This document shows positions 16,430-24,478 of a stretch of DNA of 32,000 nt, piece by piece (within the stretch, counting starts at the first letter, position 1; each line of letters opens with the position of its first letter). The stretch is from Methanocaldococcus jannaschii DSM 2661 (lineage in GTDB: Archaea; AGJL01; Methanococci; Methanococcales; Methanocaldococcaceae). The stretch is from NCBI RefSeq assembly GCF_000091665.1, contig NC_000909.1, positions 674,048 through 706,047 of the forward strand. The letters are read 5' to 3'. The notes under the pieces were generated by a model, which worked only from the letters and a program-made list of their open reading frames with translations, ran no database searches and was not told where the DNA came from. A program made the position numbers and the translations under genes.

Positions 16430-16939
16430 TTAGAATTCTTTAACATGTTTTATAATATCTTCCAAAATCTTCTTCGCCTTCTCCAAATCATAATCAACAG
16501 TTGCCTCCAACTCCAAAAATAGAACTTGCAGACTTGGAGAATACTTACCCTTATTAATCAAATACTCCCTATACTCCCAAACTAATTTTTTAAATCTCTC
16601 AAGTTTTAACTCTTTAATACAATCCTTAGCATAATCCCAAACGGTAGATTTTCCTATGCCTAAAATATTACCAATTTCTCTAACAGAATAGCCCTCAATA
16701 ATTAATTCATGAATCTTTTTAACAGTTTCATCATCAACTTTTCTCTTCCTCCCTCTCTTTGCATTCTCAACCTCTATAAAAATGCCTTTTTTCTTTAAAT
16801 ATTCCAGTTTATAAGCCATTTTTGGATGTTCATAAACAGACTTTGGAAGTTTTAGCAAAACCAAATCTTTTTCTCTCAGTTTTACAATCTTATTAATCTC
16901 ATCCCATCTTGGAATCTTAGATATTTTTATCTCAATCAT
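16430..16939 (-). CDS. HTH DNA-binding protein (resolvase/Hin-type HTH in the middle)
   Basis: KRGRKRKVDDETVKKIHELIIEGYSVREIGNILGIGKSTVWDYAKD. Its start overlaps the stop of the upstream recombinase gene by 8 nt. Confidence 0.55.
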   Translation of the reverse strand: MIEIKISKIPRWDEINKIVKLREKDLVLLKLPKSVYEHPKMAYKLEYLKKKGIFIEVENAKRGRKRKVDDETVKKIHELIIEGYSVREIGNILGIGKSTVWDYAKDCIKELKLERFKKLVWEYREYLINKGKYSPSLQVLFLELEATVDYDLEKAKKILEDIIKHVKEF

Positions 16940-17603
16940 CTAAATCCCCAATATTTTTTAGAATCTCTTTTGCCAGTCTGCTTTGAGTGTAAGTTTCAAT
17001 GTAGTTTATGTTCTTATGCTTGGTTATTTTTGCTAAGACTTGTGCTGGGATGCCATGTTCTCCCAAGTAAGTAACATAGGCATACCTCAGGGAGTGAGTA
17101 TTAATTCCATAATTTTTATAAAGCCAAGCTCCAAATCTCTTAACAATCTTTTTCTTTGCTTTTAACTTTTCATCCATTGTTAGCTTTTCATCAATCTCCT
17201 TTTTAATGTCTAAAAAAACATCCCTAACCATTTCAATATCCTCTTTTTTAATGCATTTTGGTATAATCAGCTCTCTAAACTCCCAATCCTTCCTCTTCTG
17301 AGTCCTAACTTTAACAGTTATCCTCTCATTCCAATTAAGATTGTCTATATTGATGGCTATGTTTATCATCCCAGCTATAGCCTCCCAAATCCTACAACCA
17401 TTCCTTAATTGGAATAAAAAAGTTATAAGATAAGCTATTCTCTTGTAATCATCTTCATAAAGTAATTCCTTGTTTTTCAATTTCTGCAAATCTTCTTTAA
17501 ACATTTTATAGGTTTGTTTGTAATCAATGCCTTTATCCCATGTGCCGCTATGTTTTTTAATACTTTCAGAAGGTTTCGATAGATTCCAATCCCATATCAT
17601 CAT
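16932..17603 (-). CDS. Tyrosine recombinase / integrase (compact, catalytic domain only)
   Basis: Catalytic signature: R in NGCRIWEA, HxLR in THSLRYAY, H/K in ITKHKN, nucleophile Y in YIETYTQ. Confidence 0.75.
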   Translation of the reverse strand: MMIWDWNLSKPSESIKKHSGTWDKGIDYKQTYKMFKEDLQKLKNKELLYEDDYKRIAYLITFLFQLRNGCRIWEAIAGMINIAINIDNLNWNERITVKVRTQKRKDWEFRELIIPKCIKKEDIEMVRDVFLDIKKEIDEKLTMDEKLKAKKKIVKRFGAWLYKNYGINTHSLRYAYVTYLGEHGIPAQVLAKITKHKNINYIETYTQSRLAKEILKNIGDLDD

Positions 17604-17691: not shown

Positions 17692-18384
17692 GTGAATAAA
17701 TTGGTAAAGAAGGTTTATGGTGTTGGTGTAGGTGTTGGAGACAAAAAGCTATTAACATTAAAGGCATTAGAGGTTTTAAAAAAAGTAGATAAAATCTTTG
17801 TCCCAGTATCTAAAAAGGGGAAGAAATCTATTGCCTATGAAATTATAAAGGATTATGTTGATGGGAAGAATATTGAAGAACTTTTATTCCCCATGATTAA
17901 AGATAAAGAGAGGCTAAAAAAATACTGGGAAAATGCTTTAGAGAAGGTTTTAAAAGAAGATGGAGAAGTAGCTATAATAACCATTGGAGACCCTACATTG
18001 TATAGCACATTCTCCTATGTCTGGAAACTTTTAAAAGAAAGAGGGGTTGAGGTAGAGATAGTTAATGGCATTTCATCAATATTTGCCTCTGCAGCTGCTT
18101 TAAATATTCCATTAGTTGAAGGAGATGAAAAACTCTGCATTTTACCTCAAGGAAAGGATTTGGAAAAATATATTGATGAATTCGACACTATAATTATTAT
18201 GAAGACAAAGAATTTAAATGAGAAGCTATCAGTTATAAAAAATAGAGATGATTATATAATTGGGTTGGTAAAGAGGGCAACTTTTGAAGATGAAAAAGTA
18301 GTAATTGGTAAGTTAGACGAAATCAACTTTGATGAATTTAATGACTATCTCTCCTTAGCTATAATAAAGAGGTTTAAGAGATGA
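17692..18384 (+). CDS. cbiL: Cobalt-factor II / precorrin-2 C20-methyltransferase
   Basis: Tetrapyrrole methylase N-terminus VYGVGVGVGDKKLLTLKALEVLKKVDKIFVP, then ITIGDPTLYSTFSY. GTG start per the track. Confidence 0.8.
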   Translation: MNKLVKKVYGVGVGVGDKKLLTLKALEVLKKVDKIFVPVSKKGKKSIAYEIIKDYVDGKNIEELLFPMIKDKERLKKYWENALEKVLKEDGEVAIITIGDPTLYSTFSYVWKLLKERGVEVEIVNGISSIFASAAALNIPLVEGDEKLCILPQGKDLEKYIDEFDTIIIMKTKNLNEKLSVIKNRDDYIIGLVKRATFEDEKVVIGKLDEINFDEFNDYLSLAIIKRFKR

Positions 18385-19442
18385 AAATAATAAAAGCAGT
18401 TCCAGAAGAGTTTTTAAATGGATTGTATTTAATTCCAACTGACAGAGGGAATTTATTGGAATTAGATGAAAACGGAAATTTTGAGGTAGTTAATAATATA
18501 GCCATAATTAGGGTTTTAGCAACACCAAATTTAAAAAAGGCTATAGCCAAGATTGTCTATCAAATTAAAGATAAATACTACTTATTTAAAAATCATAAAA
18601 AAGCAAACTGGCTGAAAAATCTCTTAGAATATATGAACAATAAGATAGAGTTCGATAAATATTATAGAGCCAAAAAGGCATGGTATAGAGGAATAGGGGA
18701 TTTATTTAGAAATATAAGAAAATGGGAATTTGAAAAAGTTGTTGGAAAGATAATCTCACTATTAAAGGTTTTGAATCCAATAGTTGTCTTTGATGTTCAT
18801 GATATAAGAAAATGGCATTATAGGAAGAGTTTTATAAACTTTGTTAAAGAATTAAGGAAAAATAGTATAAGTGTTGTAATAAGATATCCAATTGACTGTC
18901 ATGAAGAGATTAGGGAGATTTTTCCAGAAGGCATTTTAAATACAAAAGCAACCATAAGATACTTTGCAAAGGTTCATGGTTATTATATAAGCGATAGAGT
19001 GGCTGAATATCTCCTAAAAATAACCAATGGAAACTTAGAAACAATATATTTGATATTAAGACACTCAAAAAGAGAGATAAAAAATCTTAGAGAGCTAAAA
19101 ATTCCATGGCTTAGGATTTTACCATATATAGTAGATTCGAAATATCGAAAATTGGTTGAAGTTATAATTGAACTAAGAAAGTTCAAAGTTGAAGATATTA
19201 CTTATAAAGTTAATTACAAATTATCAACCATATACAGATATTTAGATGAGTTGGTTGAGTTAGGAATACTGACAAAAATAAAACATAAAGGCAAAGTAAG
19301 ATTTAAAATAAGATTGAACAGAAATATTTTATTAACTCTCCTCAAAAAATCTAAAAATAACTATTTGCATTGGTTCTCTATTTTCTTGTTAGATAGCATA
19401 CCTTGGGATATACAGATTTTCGAATTTTCGAAAAGTATATAA
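18381..19442 (+). CDS. Winged-helix protein with a possible degenerate AAA+-like core (no intact P-loop)
   Basis: ATGA overlap with the cbiL stop. C-terminal wHTH is YKLSTIYRYLDELVELGILTKIKHKGKVRFKI. It has a Walker-B-like PIVVFDVHD and a lid-like ISDRVAEYLLKITNGNLETIYLILRHS. No GxxxxGK[ST]; YRGIGDLF may be a vestige. Confidence 0.5.
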   Translation: MKIIKAVPEEFLNGLYLIPTDRGNLLELDENGNFEVVNNIAIIRVLATPNLKKAIAKIVYQIKDKYYLFKNHKKANWLKNLLEYMNNKIEFDKYYRAKKAWYRGIGDLFRNIRKWEFEKVVGKIISLLKVLNPIVVFDVHDIRKWHYRKSFINFVKELRKNSISVVIRYPIDCHEEIREIFPEGILNTKATIRYFAKVHGYYISDRVAEYLLKITNGNLETIYLILRHSKREIKNLRELKIPWLRILPYIVDSKYRKLVEVIIELRKFKVEDITYKVNYKLSTIYRYLDELVELGILTKIKHKGKVRFKIRLNRNILLTLLKKSKNNYLHWFSIFLLDSIPWDIQIFEFSKSI

Positions 19443-19584
19443 TAATTAATAGTATTCATACTCAACTTAATGACAGTATTAATATTTATTGATTGTGTAA
19501 AGTTATGACAAAACTTTGTTTTCTTTTTTGGCATATAATTAATATTTTAAGAAACTTAATTTAAATATAAATTTCTTAAAAGGT

Positions 19585-19616
19585 TTTCGAATTTTCGAGT
19601 TACATGTATGTATATG
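19585..19616 (+). repeat. Left arm of the 32-nt inverted repeat
   Basis: TTTCGAATTTTCGAGTTACATGTATGTATATG, read directly from the sequence. Confidence 0.9.
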
Positions 19617-19928
19617 CAGAAAATCTTCGCCTAACTTAAAAAATGGTTGTGAATATCGCAAGCACAACTATTATACTATTGTACTTTTTTTCACAATATA
19701 AGTTAAAATAGTAAAAATTTTTTATTTTATATTTTAATATTAATTATTGTAAAATATTTCCAATAAATATTGTTAAAAAATGTTATTTTAAAAAAATAAA
19801 AATAAAAAAACCATAATTAGCTCTAAAACTCTAACGTTATACGTTTATAATACAAAATAGTGTATAATATCCTTTACTCTAATTTTGCGATAATTCGTTT
19901 TTCAGAAAAAGTTGTCCATTCTGTTGGT

Positions 19929-19960
19929 CATATACATACATGCAACTCGAAAATTCGAAA
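19929..19960 (-). repeat. Right arm of the 32-nt inverted repeat (31/32 identical to the left arm)
   Basis: The reverse complement of 19929-19960 is TTTCGAATTTTCGAGTTGCATGTATGTATATG. It lies 4 nt from the stop codon of the 175-aa gene. Confidence 0.9.
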
Positions 19961-19964
19961 TTCG

Positions 19965-20492
19965 TTAATCTTGATTTTTCAATGTTTTATAGAGCCGTTT
20001 CAAATAATCAATGTGTTTGCATGTATCACTCTGACAGATAACACACCACCAATAGCCTTTATTGCTTCTAAAAACATCACCTAAATGCTCTCCATTGGAA
20101 TCAAAGAATGAAAATACTATTCCTCCAAGTTTATCCTCTTTCCAGCTGATTTCAAACCCTATTTTATCCACTGGGTAATACTTAGTGGCAATTTTCTTTT
20201 TAGGTAATTGTTCGAAAACACTCGAAAAACTCAAATCGAATATTTCTGGAGCCAATCTTTTTAATATCGCCAATCCTTTTGATGTAAATGAATATAAAAC
20301 TTTATGTCCCGCTCTTTCTCTCTTCATTATATTTAGAGCCGAACATAGCCTCAAAAAAGAGCTTGCAAGACCTTTCGATATATTTAAATTTTCTGCGAGT
20401 GATTGTGGATAGGTTGTGCCACGTATTAACACATAATGTAAAATCGCCTTTCTAAATATAGTTGATACTATTTCATAAGGCAATCTTTCCAT
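19965..20492 (-). CDS. Winged-helix DNA-binding protein with C-terminal SWIM-like zinc finger
   Basis: wHTH: TYPQSLAENLNISKGLASSFLRLCSALNIMKRERAGHKVLYSFTSKGL. C-terminus: WWCVICQSDTCKHIDYLKRL (CxxC...CxH). GGGTG box upstream of the ATG at 20490-20492. Confidence 0.6.
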   Translation of the reverse strand: MERLPYEIVSTIFRKAILHYVLIRGTTYPQSLAENLNISKGLASSFLRLCSALNIMKRERAGHKVLYSFTSKGLAILKRLAPEIFDLSFSSVFEQLPKKKIATKYYPVDKIGFEISWKEDKLGGIVFSFFDSNGEHLGDVFRSNKGYWWCVICQSDTCKHIDYLKRLYKTLKNQD

Positions 20493-20581
20493 ATTTACAC
20501 CCAGTATTCCTAATAACTATTATTGTTGTGATTTTGTTTTGTTGATACTCAATTATATTTGACATACTCGTTTATAAAACT

Positions 20582-21049
20582 TTTGATTCATGGGATTGTT
20601 TTAACCCCTATGTGTTGGGTGTAGTAATACTAACATTTTAAGAACGTCTCTTTGAGTATGTTTCTATATTGTACCAATATTTATCTCTTTCTATTATTTT
20701 GTTGTTATATGCTATTTTTTACTAATAATTCTTAGATTTAATATACTGTTAATTTACATATAATCTTTGATTCATAGTTTTTTATTGGTTATATTATTTG
20801 ATTCACGATATCTTATTTTTAATATTTTGAAGCAATTCCTATGAGAAGAATTAAAATTAACTTTATTTCATTAGAATAATATATATATTATATTTAATTT
20901 CATTCAAGTTTATTTCTGAAAATAATAATCACTTATTCTATATGAAATATTGTTTGATTCATTAGATTTTTTAATTTTATTGTTTGATTCATGAGATTTT
21001 TAATAAACTTTATAATAAAACATTTAAATTTAAGAATAATTGATTCAAT
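20582..21049 (+). repeat. Array of six co-oriented TTTGATTCA(T) boxes in the divergent intergenic region
   Basis: Boxes at 20582-20591, 20766-20775, 20797-20806 (..CAC), 20953-20962, 20983-20992 and 21040-21049 (ATTGATTCAAT variant). The boxes at 20948-20971 and 20978-21001 sit in 24-nt repeats with one mismatch, 30 bp apart. A degenerate copy TTTATTTCATTAG lies at 20862-20874. Confidence 0.8.
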
Positions 21050-21179
21050 CTATCTTTCGATTTTTCGAAATCTATATAACGTTCTTAAGACAAAAGTTCG
21101 AAATCAATGGAAAATATTGTAGATAATTAGTAGATAATTAATTTAAATAAATTAATTTATATTTTATTGCGGTGGAAAC

Positions 21180-22409
21180 ATGGACCCAATAGAGTTTATA
21201 CAAAAATCTGCAAGCTCTATAGCAAGCACCATGCATAAATTAAAATTAAAATACAATCCATTTTCTGAAAAGCCAATAAGGGGAAATACAAAGTTTTTTG
21301 TAGGTAGAGTTAGCGAGTTAAGGGAAATTGGAGAAATTTTAGGTTCTGCATTGCATGGTAGTGTTGCTAACGCTGCAATAGTTGGAACTAAGGGGATAGG
21401 GAAGAGTTCAATGCTAAACATCATATACTATGCAACAAAAAAGCAGGGACATTGGGTTGTTGAGATGACTGCCTCTCAGGTAACACCAAGGCAGTTTTTG
21501 ATACAGCTCTTATACAATATATTAACTGAAAACATCATAACCATGAGTGGAACGATAAAATCTGATTACATGGAACATTCAAGTAGAATTTTAGATATGT
21601 ATAGGAAGTTAAACAACTATGGGGATAAAGTTCCTATCCACTATCCAAGGGAGAGGATTGAGAGGGATTTGGAATATCTAATAAATGAAGTTAAAAGTCC
21701 TGATAAGTTATGTATAATTTTAATTGATGAAGCTGACCAATTTGCAAAAAAGAGCTGTTTAAGTTTATTACAATTTTTCCACTCGTTTTTGTATGAAGAG
21801 GGAATTTTAACGTTTATGGCTGGTTCTCCAACATTGATGGATGATTTAACAAAGATATCTCCACCAATAAAGGATAGAATTCCAAAAATAATAAATATGC
21901 CTCCTTTATCAAAAGATGAGTCCTATGATTTAATTAGAAGAAGATTGGAAGATGCTCATATTGATGGAGCAGAGGAGTTTGAGCCGTTTACTGAAGAGGC
22001 TATTCATAAAATTGTTGAAGAGTGTGACGGAATTCCAAGAAAGATAATAATGACATGCTCTGAATCAATATCAATAGCTATAAGAAAGGGTTTAACTAAA
22101 ATAGATGAGAAGGTTGTTAAAGAGGCTATGCATTCTCTTGGCATTAGTGTAGGACATCAAATTCTAAACCACTTAACTCCTGCCCAATCAGAGATTGTTA
22201 GGGCAATGGCTGAGCTTGGAGGTTCAGCAACGGTAACACAATTAGCTGAATATTTAAAAAAATCACCAAGTACTATTGGAACTCATCTCTCTGACATCTA
22301 TGAGATGGGATATATTTATAAAGAAAGGGAAGGAAACAACGTATATTATAAACTATCTAAAGAACTTAGGGATGTCTTAATAGGTGAAGATGATGAATTG
22401 GAGATGTGA
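21180..22409 (+). CDS. Divergent Orc1/Cdc6-like AAA+ ATPase with C-terminal winged helix
   Basis: Walker A GTKGIGKSS, Walker B LCIILIDEAD, lid-like FTEEAIHKIVEECDGIPRKIIMTCSESISIA. C-terminal wHTH ATVTQLAEYLKKSPSTIGTHLSDIYEMGYIYKEREGNNVYYKLS. GGTGG box at 21171-21175. Confidence 0.7.
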   Translation: MDPIEFIQKSASSIASTMHKLKLKYNPFSEKPIRGNTKFFVGRVSELREIGEILGSALHGSVANAAIVGTKGIGKSSMLNIIYYATKKQGHWVVEMTASQVTPRQFLIQLLYNILTENIITMSGTIKSDYMEHSSRILDMYRKLNNYGDKVPIHYPRERIERDLEYLINEVKSPDKLCIILIDEADQFAKKSCLSLLQFFHSFLYEEGILTFMAGSPTLMDDLTKISPPIKDRIPKIINMPPLSKDESYDLIRRRLEDAHIDGAEEFEPFTEEAIHKIVEECDGIPRKIIMTCSESISIAIRKGLTKIDEKVVKEAMHSLGISVGHQILNHLTPAQSEIVRAMAELGGSATVTQLAEYLKKSPSTIGTHLSDIYEMGYIYKEREGNNVYYKLSKELRDVLIGEDDELEM

Positions 22410-23334
22410 TGTTCAAAATTTTGAGCCAGATGTTAAAATATCATTAACAAGAGTTGGAGTTACAAATCTAAAAAAACTTGTTAGATTAAAGAGAACAAAT
22501 AAAAGACCAATAATATTGTTATCTACGTTTGAGGTTTTTGTTAATTTGCCGAGTTCTCAGAAAGGAATACACATGTCAAGAAATCCTGAAGTTATAGAGG
22601 GAATAATAGATGAGGCTTTAGAGTTGGAGAGTTATGAGATGGAGACAATTTGTGAGGAGATAGTTAAGAGGTTGTTTGAGAAGCATGAATATGCCACAGA
22701 GGCAGAGGTTTTTATGGTTAGTGATTTCATGACTAAGGAGAAAAGCCCTATATCTGGGAAGTATTCCCAGGAGATTCACAAAATCATGGGTGGAGCTAAG
22801 GGAATAAAGAAGGATGATGAAATTGAATTAACAAAGATTGTTGGGGCCGAGGTTGTTGGTATCACTGCTTGTCCATGTGCTCAAAATTTAATAAAGGAGA
22901 TATGTATTAAAAACTTAAAGGAAAAAGGCTTTTCTGATGAAGATATTGATAAAATATTGGATTCTGTTATATTTGCCACTCATAATCAGAGAGGAATTGG
23001 TAGAATTATATTGGAAGTTCCTACCGGATATGATATTGAGATTATGGATATCATAGAAATAATTAAAAAATCCATGAGTGCTGAGATTCATGGAATATTA
23101 AAGAGAGCTGATGAAGCTTATGTTGTTGAACAAAGCCATAAAAACCCTAAGTTTGTTGAGGATTGTGTTAGGGAGATGGCTAAAAGGGTAGTGGAGAAAT
23201 TTAAACACTTACCAGATGAGACGAAGGTTTTAATTAGGCAGATAAATATGGAGAGTATTCATAGACATGACGCATTTGCTGAAAAGGTTGCTACATTGGG
23301 GGAATTAAGAAGAGAGCTTTTAAGCTATGAATAA
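22390..23334 (+). CDS. mptA: GTP cyclohydrolase MptA (FolE2/MptA family; first step of the methanopterin pterin branch)
   Basis: The track ORF starts at GTG 22384; ATGs at 22390 and 22393 are alternatives, and all overlap the upstream gene's end. Family motifs: QKGIHMSR, GITACPCAQ, THNQRG. Confidence 0.8.
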   Translation: MMNWRCDVQNFEPDVKISLTRVGVTNLKKLVRLKRTNKRPIILLSTFEVFVNLPSSQKGIHMSRNPEVIEGIIDEALELESYEMETICEEIVKRLFEKHEYATEAEVFMVSDFMTKEKSPISGKYSQEIHKIMGGAKGIKKDDEIELTKIVGAEVVGITACPCAQNLIKEICIKNLKEKGFSDEDIDKILDSVIFATHNQRGIGRIILEVPTGYDIEIMDIIEIIKKSMSAEIHGILKRADEAYVVEQSHKNPKFVEDCVREMAKRVVEKFKHLPDETKVLIRQINMESIHRHDAFAEKVATLGELRRELLSYE

Positions 23335-23380
23335 TTTCACGCTCTTTTTATTTAGCTGTTTATATTTTATAGGTGGTAAT

Positions 23381-24478
23381 TTGAAAGCTTTGGTTTTAGG
23401 TATCAACACAAGGCCTGTAGTTAATTCTCTTAAAAAATTAGGATTTTATGTATATTCAGTCTCTTACTACGCCCCAGAAGATTTAAATGCTGATGAGAAA
23501 TATTATTTGATAAATCCTTTAGTTCATGGAAGATTAAAAGAAAACTATGATGAAAACAAATTAATTGAAATAGCTAATAAATTAGCTGATGAAGTTGATT
23601 GTATCTTTATAACTTCAGGTGTTTTTGAATTCGAAAATTCGAAAATTCCAGGATGGGATAATGTTATAGGTAATGGGCCAAAAAAGATAAATGAAATCAG
23701 TAACAAATATAAAACATATAAGAAATTAAAAAATCTTGGTTTTAATATACCAGAAACTAAGAAAATAAACAATAAGACTCAATTATATAAATTTTTGGAA
23801 GAATTTAAAACCTGCATTTTAAAGCCTATCTACGGGAGTGGAGGAAGTATTTTAAAGATAGAATTAAATAACTTTGATGATGAGATAATTAATGAAATTA
23901 AGTTCCCAATTATTGCTCAGGAATATATTAGAGGGAAAAGTTTTAGTGCCAACTTTATAGGCAATACATTTATAACCTTTAACAAACAAATTATAATTAA
24001 GGGAATGTATGCTGGGAATTTAACTCCATATATTAATTTACCAAATAAGTTTGTTGAAATATTTGGTGAGGTTATAGAATCTTTTGAATTAAAAGGAATG
24101 AGTGGCATTGATTTTTTGATTAAAGATAATGGTCCTTATATTGTTGATATAAATCCTCGCATTTTAGGAACTTATGAGACCATAGAGATGAGTGCATCTC
24201 AAAATTTGGCAATGGTTTTGCTAAATAATAAGTATGCCAAGGAGATTAAACCAAGAAAAGTATATATAAAAAGAATATTGTTTGCTAAAGAGAAAATTAT
24301 CGCTAATATATCAAAAAGGGACTTTATACATGATATTCCAAAGAAAAATGCAGTTATAGAGAAAGGAGAGCCTATAGCTACAGTAATTGCAAAAGAAAAC
24401 ATTAAATCAATAATAAACAGTGTTTATGAGGAGTGTGCAGAGTATGAGAAAAGAAAAGAAGATAGAGAGAATATATGA
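23381..24478 (+). CDS. ATP-grasp domain protein of unknown substrate
   Basis: The track ORF starts at 23327. I favour TTG at 23381 (AGGTGG at 23371-23376), giving MKALVLGINTRP. ATP-grasp blocks: ILKPIYGSGGS, IAQEYIRG, MSGIDFLIKDNGPYIVDINPR. Confidence 0.7.
   Translation: MKALVLGINTRPVVNSLKKLGFYVYSVSYYAPEDLNADEKYYLINPLVHGRLKENYDENKLIEIANKLADEVDCIFITSGVFEFENSKIPGWDNVIGNGPKKINEISNKYKTYKKLKNLGFNIPETKKINNKTQLYKFLEEFKTCILKPIYGSGGSILKIELNNFDDEIINEIKFPIIAQEYIRGKSFSANFIGNTFITFNKQIIIKGMYAGNLTPYINLPNKFVEIFGEVIESFELKGMSGIDFLIKDNGPYIVDINPRILGTYETIEMSASQNLAMVLLNNKYAKEIKPRKVYIKRILFAKEKIIANISKRDFIHDIPKKNAVIEKGEPIATVIAKENIKSIINSVYEECAEYEKRKEDRENI

Follow-up and report, generated by a model that had tools for sequence, protein, structure and literature searches.

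We analyzed a 32,000-nucleotide stretch of the Methanocaldococcus jannaschii DSM 2661 genome (C1:674048-706047, hereafter the window), in which a family of TTTCG-containing boxes is clustered around three genes, p353, p175, and p409, and we consider whether these boxes serve as replication origin-recognition sites. The genome consists of a 1,664,970-bp chromosome and two small replicons of 58,407 and 16,550 bp (about 1.74 Mb in total). The comparative set comprised 13 kb around the p409 homolog from each of 20 other Methanococcales genomes, 21 genomes including that of the window. The genes of the locus, in window coordinates, are as follows.

17692-18384: tetrapyrrole methylase gene
18381-19442, plus strand: p353, a 353-aa gene
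19965-20492, minus strand: p175, a 175-aa gene
21180-22409, plus strand: p409, a 409-aa gene encoding AAA+ and ArsR-type helix-turn-helix (HTH) domains

Downstream of p409 come mptA, which encodes a GTP cyclohydrolase, a gene for an ATP-grasp protein, and tfe, which encodes TFE-alpha. The order p353, ~520-bp spacer, p175, ~690-bp spacer, p409, mptA, ATP-grasp, and tfe extends from Methanocaldococcus through Methanococcus, and its portion from p353 to p409, including both spacers, was intact in 19 of the 21 genomes examined. Over these genes and spacers, the boxes and accompanying features are distributed as listed below.

19135-19153: site A, a double TCGA box in the p353 coding sequence, encoding DSKYRKL
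19417-19442, plus strand: site B, a short box that covers the 3′ end of the p353 coding sequence, stop codon included, consisting of a double TTTCGA plus GTATATAA
19492-19514: conserved block between sites B and C, a dyad of the type TTGTG...CA(C/A)AA, from the alignment of 19 genomes
19582-19616, plus strand: arm C, the left long box, consisting of a double TTTCGA box, 4-5 nt, and then ATGTATGTATATG, and pointing inward
19645-19668: inner left box, a small dyad with ATATCGCAA (ATTATCACAA in relatives), mirrored by the inner right box
19680-19860: AT-rich core, a candidate DNA unwinding element (DUE), with a G+C content of 13.3% over 181 bp and of 5% in the lowest 60-mer
19883-19897: inner right box, TTTTGCGATAAT, which pairs in inverted orientation with the inner left box
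19929-19963, minus strand: arm D, the right long box, an inverted copy of arm C that also points inward
20211-20240: looser triple TCGA cluster in the p175 coding sequence, encoding EIFDLSFSSVFE
20574-21056, plus strand: second repeat family, TTTGATTCA boxes that share one orientation, within the 687-bp spacer between p175 and p409
21055-21079, plus strand: site E, a short box with a double TTTCGA, placed directly against the TATA-like CTATATAA, some 110 bp 5′ of p409
21091-21106, minus strand: site E′, a degenerate copy in inverted orientation, across the TATA-like element from site E, kept in close relatives
23630-23645, minus strand: copy in the ATP-grasp gene, encoding FEFENSK

A preliminary description of this DNA had located copies of the motif at 19417-19434, 19584-19598, 19947-19960 (followed by a further TTCG), 21055-21070, and 23630-23645, and the coordinates and sequences of all five were correct on re-reading; the looser TCGA clusters at 19135-19153, 20211-20240, and 21086-21106 were also present. 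That description regarded the palindrome TTCGAA as the motif unit, read by a dimeric or oligomeric protein. This is not what the relatives keep: the conserved sequence is a direct repeat, TTTCG-N2-TTTTCGA, at 8-bp phase, and often carries CGAG or CGGG. Across the 21 Methanococcales genomes, the conserved unit was the direct double box TTTCGrr-TTTTCGAr, which together with ATGTATGTATA forms a box of about 33 bp, present as two inverted arms between p353 and p175. The consensus of the 42 arms from these genomes reads tTTTCGrgTTTTCGAg, 4-5 variable bases, and ATGTATgTATa, with information content near 2 bits in both TTTCG boxes and in the ATGTAT-TAT part. In Methanococcus, the boxes take the form CGGT/CGAG or CGGG/CGAA. 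Within a genome, both arms carried the same bases at the variable positions, and this co-variation points either to a single binder or to arm-to-arm conversion.

The boxes were largely specific to this locus. When up to one mismatch was allowed, TTCGAANNTTCGAA gave six matches in the window against 0.07 expected from shuffled sequences. The same search applied genome-wide, as the preliminary description had proposed, returned nine matches, of which six, including both exact ones, fell within 4.5 kb (window 19136-23643), and none lay on the two small replicons. The long box occurred exactly twice in the whole genome. In 40 Methanococcales genomes, a strict version of the pattern was found in 0-7 copies per genome, mostly at this locus, compared with 0-1 copies of the reversed pattern used as a control. 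Neither of the two findings that had been named as contrary to a recognition sequence, a uniform genome-wide distribution and membership of a multi-copy mobile family, holds. The enrichment of TCGA at 19.1-21.1 kb, first noticed by eye, was borne out by a count of 15 copies, where the genome averages 1.12 per 2 kb and has an overall CpG observed/expected ratio of 0.32.

Only one other genome region, at 15-18 kb of the chromosome, exceeded the TCGA density of the locus; its TCGA contexts were heterogeneous and unrelated and included no motif match, and we rejected it as an instance of the same motif. A motif regulon was also rejected, since the other matches in the genome sit in coding sequences (e.g., an aminotransferase gene at 656,068; window 7709) and look incidental.

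Arms C and D constitute a 32-nt inverted repeat with 97% complementarity, and the arm pair was present in every one of the 21 genomes carrying the locus. In 20 of them, the span from outer end to outer end was 362-380 bp and the interior measured 296-314 bp, with an interior sequence that diverges among genomes and a G+C content of 10-24% (21% in the window). As at origins built on origin recognition boxes (ORBs), inverted boxes surround an AT-rich candidate DUE, here in the gene-free spacer 19443-19964, and this layout was kept in the 21 genomes. The arms are located between the convergent genes p353 and p175, where no promoter is needed. The inner inverted pair, of the type ATTATCRCAA, lies about 30-45 bp inside each arm. 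Blocks resembling a TTGTG-N11-CACAA dyad occur in the interval from site B to site C and again immediately interior to arm C; these blocks and the inner pair may form a third, putative family of protein-binding motifs.

Two other features of the spacers were considered. A structured non-coding RNA gene was rejected, given that an Rfam search of the spacers yielded no match below E = 0.4 and that G+C contents of 21% in the interior and 13% in the core occur here in a hyperthermophile. An A-to-T skew switch in the spacer was present in the Methanococcus group and inconsistent in Methanocaldococcus, and was likewise set aside.

The short boxes differed in how they are conserved. Site B was kept from Methanocaldococcus to Methanothermococcus, about 164-168 bp to the left of arm C in most genomes; it overlies the predicted disordered tail of p353 and persists in some genomes whose p353 match ends earlier. 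Site E was conserved across the order wherever p409 lies downstream, and the spacer upstream of p409 (20493-21179) holds, of the TTTCG motif, only sites E and E′. Within coding sequences, site A was the most conserved 18-mer of p353 (rank 1 of 1044; eight genomes) and includes, two codons apart, TCG and CGA, which account for 1.7% of serine codons and 0.8% of arginine codons, respectively. The cluster in p175 ranked 4 of 498 for conservation, and the chance of such rare-codon use there was about 4e-4. Because the peptides encoded at site A and at the p175 cluster are nearly invariant, constraint on the DNA and constraint on the protein are inseparable at these two places; the rare CG codons favor a role at the DNA level. 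The suggestion that the in-gene copies are outlying sites is plausible for those in p353 and p175, where the rare TCG and CGA codons are kept, but not for the one in the ATP-grasp gene. That copy was not specially conserved (rank 131 of 1154), being lost in one close relative (L033), half lost in two others (L036 and L037), and absent from more distant genomes, and its sequence history indicates that it is probably incidental.

Genomes in which the locus is split allowed the linkage of the boxes to individual genes to be resolved. The gene p409 adjoins the boxes in 19 of the 21 genomes and is 191-445 kb distant in two, both Methanocaldococcus: it has been relocated by 445 kb in G003 (1,414,293 bp) and by 191 kb in G004 (1,328,194 bp). 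In both, the relocated p409 sits directly behind another gene, with neither a spacer nor a box in between, and p353, sites B, C, and D, p175, and the spacer with the TTTGATTCA boxes remain together. The boxes thus travel with p353 and p175 and not with the Orc-like gene. The double box of site E was absent upon relocation of p409, which ties this site to the presence of p409 downstream.

We also read the genome of G004 whole. It contains 3,214 CG dinucleotides in 1.33 Mb, an observed/expected ratio of 0.086. In this background, TTTCGNNTTTTCG occurs exactly three times, at sites B, C, and D, the nearest one-mismatch match is the site A variant, and the locus is the TCGA-densest 2 kb of the genome, ahead of the presumed rRNA operons. 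That the boxes survive where CpG has been almost eliminated strongly indicates that the DNA word itself is under selection, and for a non-coding site this signature is unusually clean.

Elsewhere in G004, a 13-kb stretch (L040) contained a single CG, and the densest CG windows, with about 170 CG per 2 kb, were found at two sites presumed to be rRNA operons.

The second repeat family followed a different pattern. From Methanocaldococcus to Methanothermococcus, the TTTGATTCA boxes lie at fixed offsets from the p175 start (90, 274, 305, 461, and 491), and they are missing in the Methanococcus group, exactly where p175 identity falls to about 35%. This loss where p175 is most diverged is a hint, from a single event, that p175 reads TTTGATTCA and not the TTTCG box.

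We next describe the proteins encoded beside the boxes. Homologs of p353 and p175 were found in Methanococcales only, and sequence searches of these two proteins against the PDB gave weak winged-helix matches only. For p353, Pfam likewise gave only a weak winged-helix (FUR) match. Its AlphaFold2 model has a predicted local distance difference test (pLDDT) score of 83.5, with tail residues 326-353 predicted to be disordered; Foldseek returned weak full-length matches (E ~1e-2) to RFC/ORC subunits, including Aeropyrum ORC1, and strong matches for the C-terminal winged helix. The protein also has a degenerate P-loop-like stretch, ATPNLKKT. The modeled structure suggests that the N-terminal part of p353 resembles a degenerate AAA+ domain and is combined with a winged helix. 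The p175 protein has an ArsR-like winged helix and a C-terminal CxxCx4CxH zinc-finger-like domain. Neither sequence nor structure searches found homology of p353 or p175 to WhiP/Cdt1.

The p409 protein was assigned AAA domains and HTH_5 by Pfam, and its best sequence match in the PDB was Cdc6 (7jgr_G, 3.9e-4). It is also the best match of the genome to TIGR02928, at 27 bits, far under the cut-off of 181. With identities of 69-99% across the order, it is the most conserved of the three proteins. These properties match those of MJ0774/Mc-pRIP, described as a putative divergent Cdc6-like initiator of Methanococcales (PMC3531139, PMC4009838, preprint 10.64898/2026.08.15.744077), and p409 is very probably this protein, a divergent Orc1/Cdc6-like candidate initiator. 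In the Methanococcaceae (Methanococcus, Methanothermococcus, and Methanotorris), the nearest upstream neighbor of p353, oriented in the same direction, is a gene for an MCM protein of 672-677 aa, in which the P-loop, lid, and OB domains of MCM are present. At that upstream position, Methanocaldococcus has the tetrapyrrole methylase gene, whose stop overlaps the p353 start by 4 nt.

Considering these results together, we propose that TTTCGrr-TTTTCGAr is probably the conserved core of a lineage-specific, ORB-like origin-recognition element of Methanococcales. This proposal follows from the locus specificity, conservation, geometry, and gene linkage of the boxes, all of which were observed directly. 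The preliminary description had suggested the recognition core of a DNA-binding protein, possibly ORB-like; this part fits all of the comparative evidence, namely locus specificity, order-wide purifying selection, survival amid the CpG purge, and inverted boxes with an AT-rich spacer beside replication genes, but its palindromic, dimeric part is not conserved.

Protein binding, DNA unwinding, and replication initiation at the boxes are what we infer from the arrangement of the sequences. An initiator would bind each long arm, with its polarity set by the asymmetric extension of the box, so that the arms would face the AT-rich core and MCM would be loaded onto the ~310-bp spacer between them. 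The short boxes would act as mini-ORBs, with site B (~166 bp to the left) and perhaps site A as auxiliary sites, and occupancy of E and E′ around the TATA-like element would repress p409, an autoregulation. As for the binder, the most conserved protein, p409, matches the most conserved DNA word, and p353 and p175 never part from the boxes. The Orc-like p409 is a plausible candidate, which we put forward tentatively; the MCM-linked p353 is a more doubtful one, and p175 an improbable one. It is conceivable, if rather unlikely, that the origin is recognized mainly by p353 (apparently co-transcribed with MCM) and/or p175 and not by Mc-pRIP. If so, a new, non-Orc initiator or helicase loader that took the place of Orc1/ORB in this order would act at the TTTCG double box. 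In either case, a box of 15-33 bp, unique to one locus and present order-wide, offers a concrete reagent for electrophoretic mobility shift assays (EMSA), chromatin immunoprecipitation (ChIP), and plasmid-replication tests, with three named candidate binders and a genetically tractable species, M. maripaludis.

Known archaeal origins provide a framework for this proposal. In Sulfolobus oriC1, Pyrococcus oriC, and Aeropyrum ori1, which depend on Orc1/Cdc6, inverted ORBs flank a DUE and are accompanied by mini-ORBs (see also PMC5333045). The Methanococcales locus resembles these origins in having long asymmetric inverted boxes around an AT-rich region with shorter, core-only copies nearby, an adjacent gene for an initiator-like protein with AAA+ and winged-helix domains, an MCM gene in some genera, and a box at the putative promoter of the candidate initiator gene. 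It differs in that two further lineage-specific genes for putative DNA-binding proteins, p353 and p175, always flank the boxes, and in that p409 has an ArsR-type HTH in place of the Cdc6 winged-helix domain and falls far below the Orc1/Cdc6 cut-off. Another comparison is provided by Sulfolobus oriC3, which depends on WhiP, an initiator other than Orc1. It sets a precedent for an archaeal origin with inverted repeats of its own that is read by a winged-helix protein outside the Orc1/Cdc6 family, although its motif is different and the lack of WhiP/Cdt1 homology noted above separates p353 and p175 from it.

Methanococcales have been described as a lineage without canonical Orc1/Cdc6 (PMC3914693, PMC5333045), and, together with Methanopyrales, as the archaea in which neither a canonical Orc1/Cdc6 nor an origin has been identified experimentally (PMC3984812, PMC3914693); reviews call the Methanococcales origin unrecognized and initiation there unknown (PMC3984812). 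An origin next to MJ0774 was predicted by Z-curve analysis in 2004 and is carried in DoriC 5.0 (PMC3531139; also PMC4009838), and the 2026 Ori-Finder-Arch preprint (10.64898/2026.08.15.744077) depicts an ORB(-)/DUE/ORB(+) layout beside Mc-pRIP as the origin of M. jannaschii. These predictions share with ours the chromosomal neighborhood and the candidate initiator. The spacer meant by Zhang and Zhang in 2004 is presumably the one directly upstream of MJ0774 (window 20493-21179); the neighboring spacer, 19443-19964, is the one that contains the inverted long boxes. Predictors that look only beside the initiator gene would miss this conserved box unit, certainly in the two species whose p409 has no upstream spacer and whose spacers stay with p353 and p175. 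The TTTCG box may already be among the motifs of the preprint. The present analysis adds a consensus at the level of the box, shows the box to be unique genome-wide and to have survived in a genome almost devoid of CpG, uses split loci to tie the boxes to p353 and p175, finds that skew gives a mixed result, and assesses the copies located in genes.

Several observations weigh against the origin proposal. The canonical ORB consensus comprises a TCCA-N3-TGGAAA dyad and a G-rich element; unlike it, the 42-arm consensus shows a directly repeated TTTCGA box at 8-bp phase followed by ATGTATGTATA, and lacks both this dyad and a G-string. The papers searched contained no report of initiator binding to the boxes by EMSA, footprinting, or ChIP. 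The module is also not universal in the order, as eight genomes of one genus, g3 (G024, G027-G031, G034, and G035), two of them at least 99% complete, were without p409. The motif was absent from all eight, p353 and p175 were absent from all five of these genomes tested, and synteny of the mptA region was gone in the two examined. The presence or absence of p353, p175, p409, and the boxes together indicates that they were gained or lost as one module. A phyletic complementarity between this module and canonical Orc1/Cdc6 was considered and rejected: no genome of the order, including those lacking the module, has an Orc1/Cdc6 above the TIGR02928 cut-off, and p409, where present, is the best sub-threshold match.

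GC skew gave a mixed picture. In the chromosome of the window, cumulative GC skew reaches its global minimum at 691,656, 1.8 kb to the left of site B. Against an origin at the boxes, G004 has a clean V-shaped skew with its minimum at 767 kb, while its boxes lie at 105 kb and its p409 at 297 kb, and G015, of which 50% was sampled, showed no clear V shape. In addition, the GC, AT, and purine curves move together, so that the skew tracks purine loading and mostly reflects gene orientation, and the minimum near the locus may be a coincidence. The skew therefore gives weak support to an origin here, and in the genome of the window only. At the skew minimum of G004 itself lies a clustered regularly interspaced short palindromic repeats (CRISPR) array, with a 37-nt repeat starting GTTTGAATCACCAG (G004:C1:767,400-768,500).

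The boxes could instead be operators of a local circuit, in which one or more winged-helix proteins control their own or neighboring transcription and take no direct part in replication. Sites B and E each place a CGAAA-type element directly 5′ of a TATA-like sequence, fitting the arrangement of a transcription factor B recognition element (BRE) and TATA box, and this resemblance to promoters, a further point against an origin element, makes a purely transcriptional role possible. Genome-wide, CGAAA was about 9-fold enriched just upstream of TTTATATA, although in 14 of 673 cases only. The bracketing of the TATA-like element of p409 by E and E′, together with the loss of the double box where p409 has moved, would suit such a circuit, as would the ArsR/MarR-like winged helices of all three neighboring proteins and the lack of skew support in G004. 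We nevertheless consider it unlikely, because the best-conserved long boxes stand between the 3′ ends of two genes, face each other at a fixed distance across a core of 13% G+C, and have no regulon elsewhere in the genome, and because linkage to MCM and an Orc-like gene points to replication.

Two further explanations concern other kinds of multi-box or repeat-bounded sites. A centromere-like site for segregation or organization near but not at the origin, at which a winged-helix protein nucleates and spreads as AspA does on pNOB8, would account for a single locus with many boxes and outlying in-gene copies, and the winged helices of p409 and p353 gave weak or structural matches to AspA. Such matches are generic for ArsR-type folds, however; a scan of ten neighboring proteins revealed no ATPase of the ParA or SegA type, and the AT-rich spacer of fixed length would be left unexplained, so that we regard this explanation as very unlikely. 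Least probable, and already largely refuted, is a relic of a foldback transposon, a miniature inverted-repeat transposable element (MITE), or another integrated element, with terminal inverted repeats around AT-rich filler. Inverted arms of 33 bp around ~310 bp have this appearance, and a tyrosine recombinase cassette lies nearby, but the 1.74 Mb genome contains only two arms, none of them on an extrachromosomal element. The arms are moreover single-copy and syntenic in every relative examined, share gene neighborhood and spacing across five genera, and are under stronger constraint than the interior, and the recombinase is missing from the loci of relatives. The cassette, which has no counterpart at the corresponding position in the relatives examined, encodes a compact tyrosine recombinase (223 aa) and an HTH_7 protein (169 aa) and is situated among cofactor genes at window 16430-17603, 2 kb to the left of the locus.

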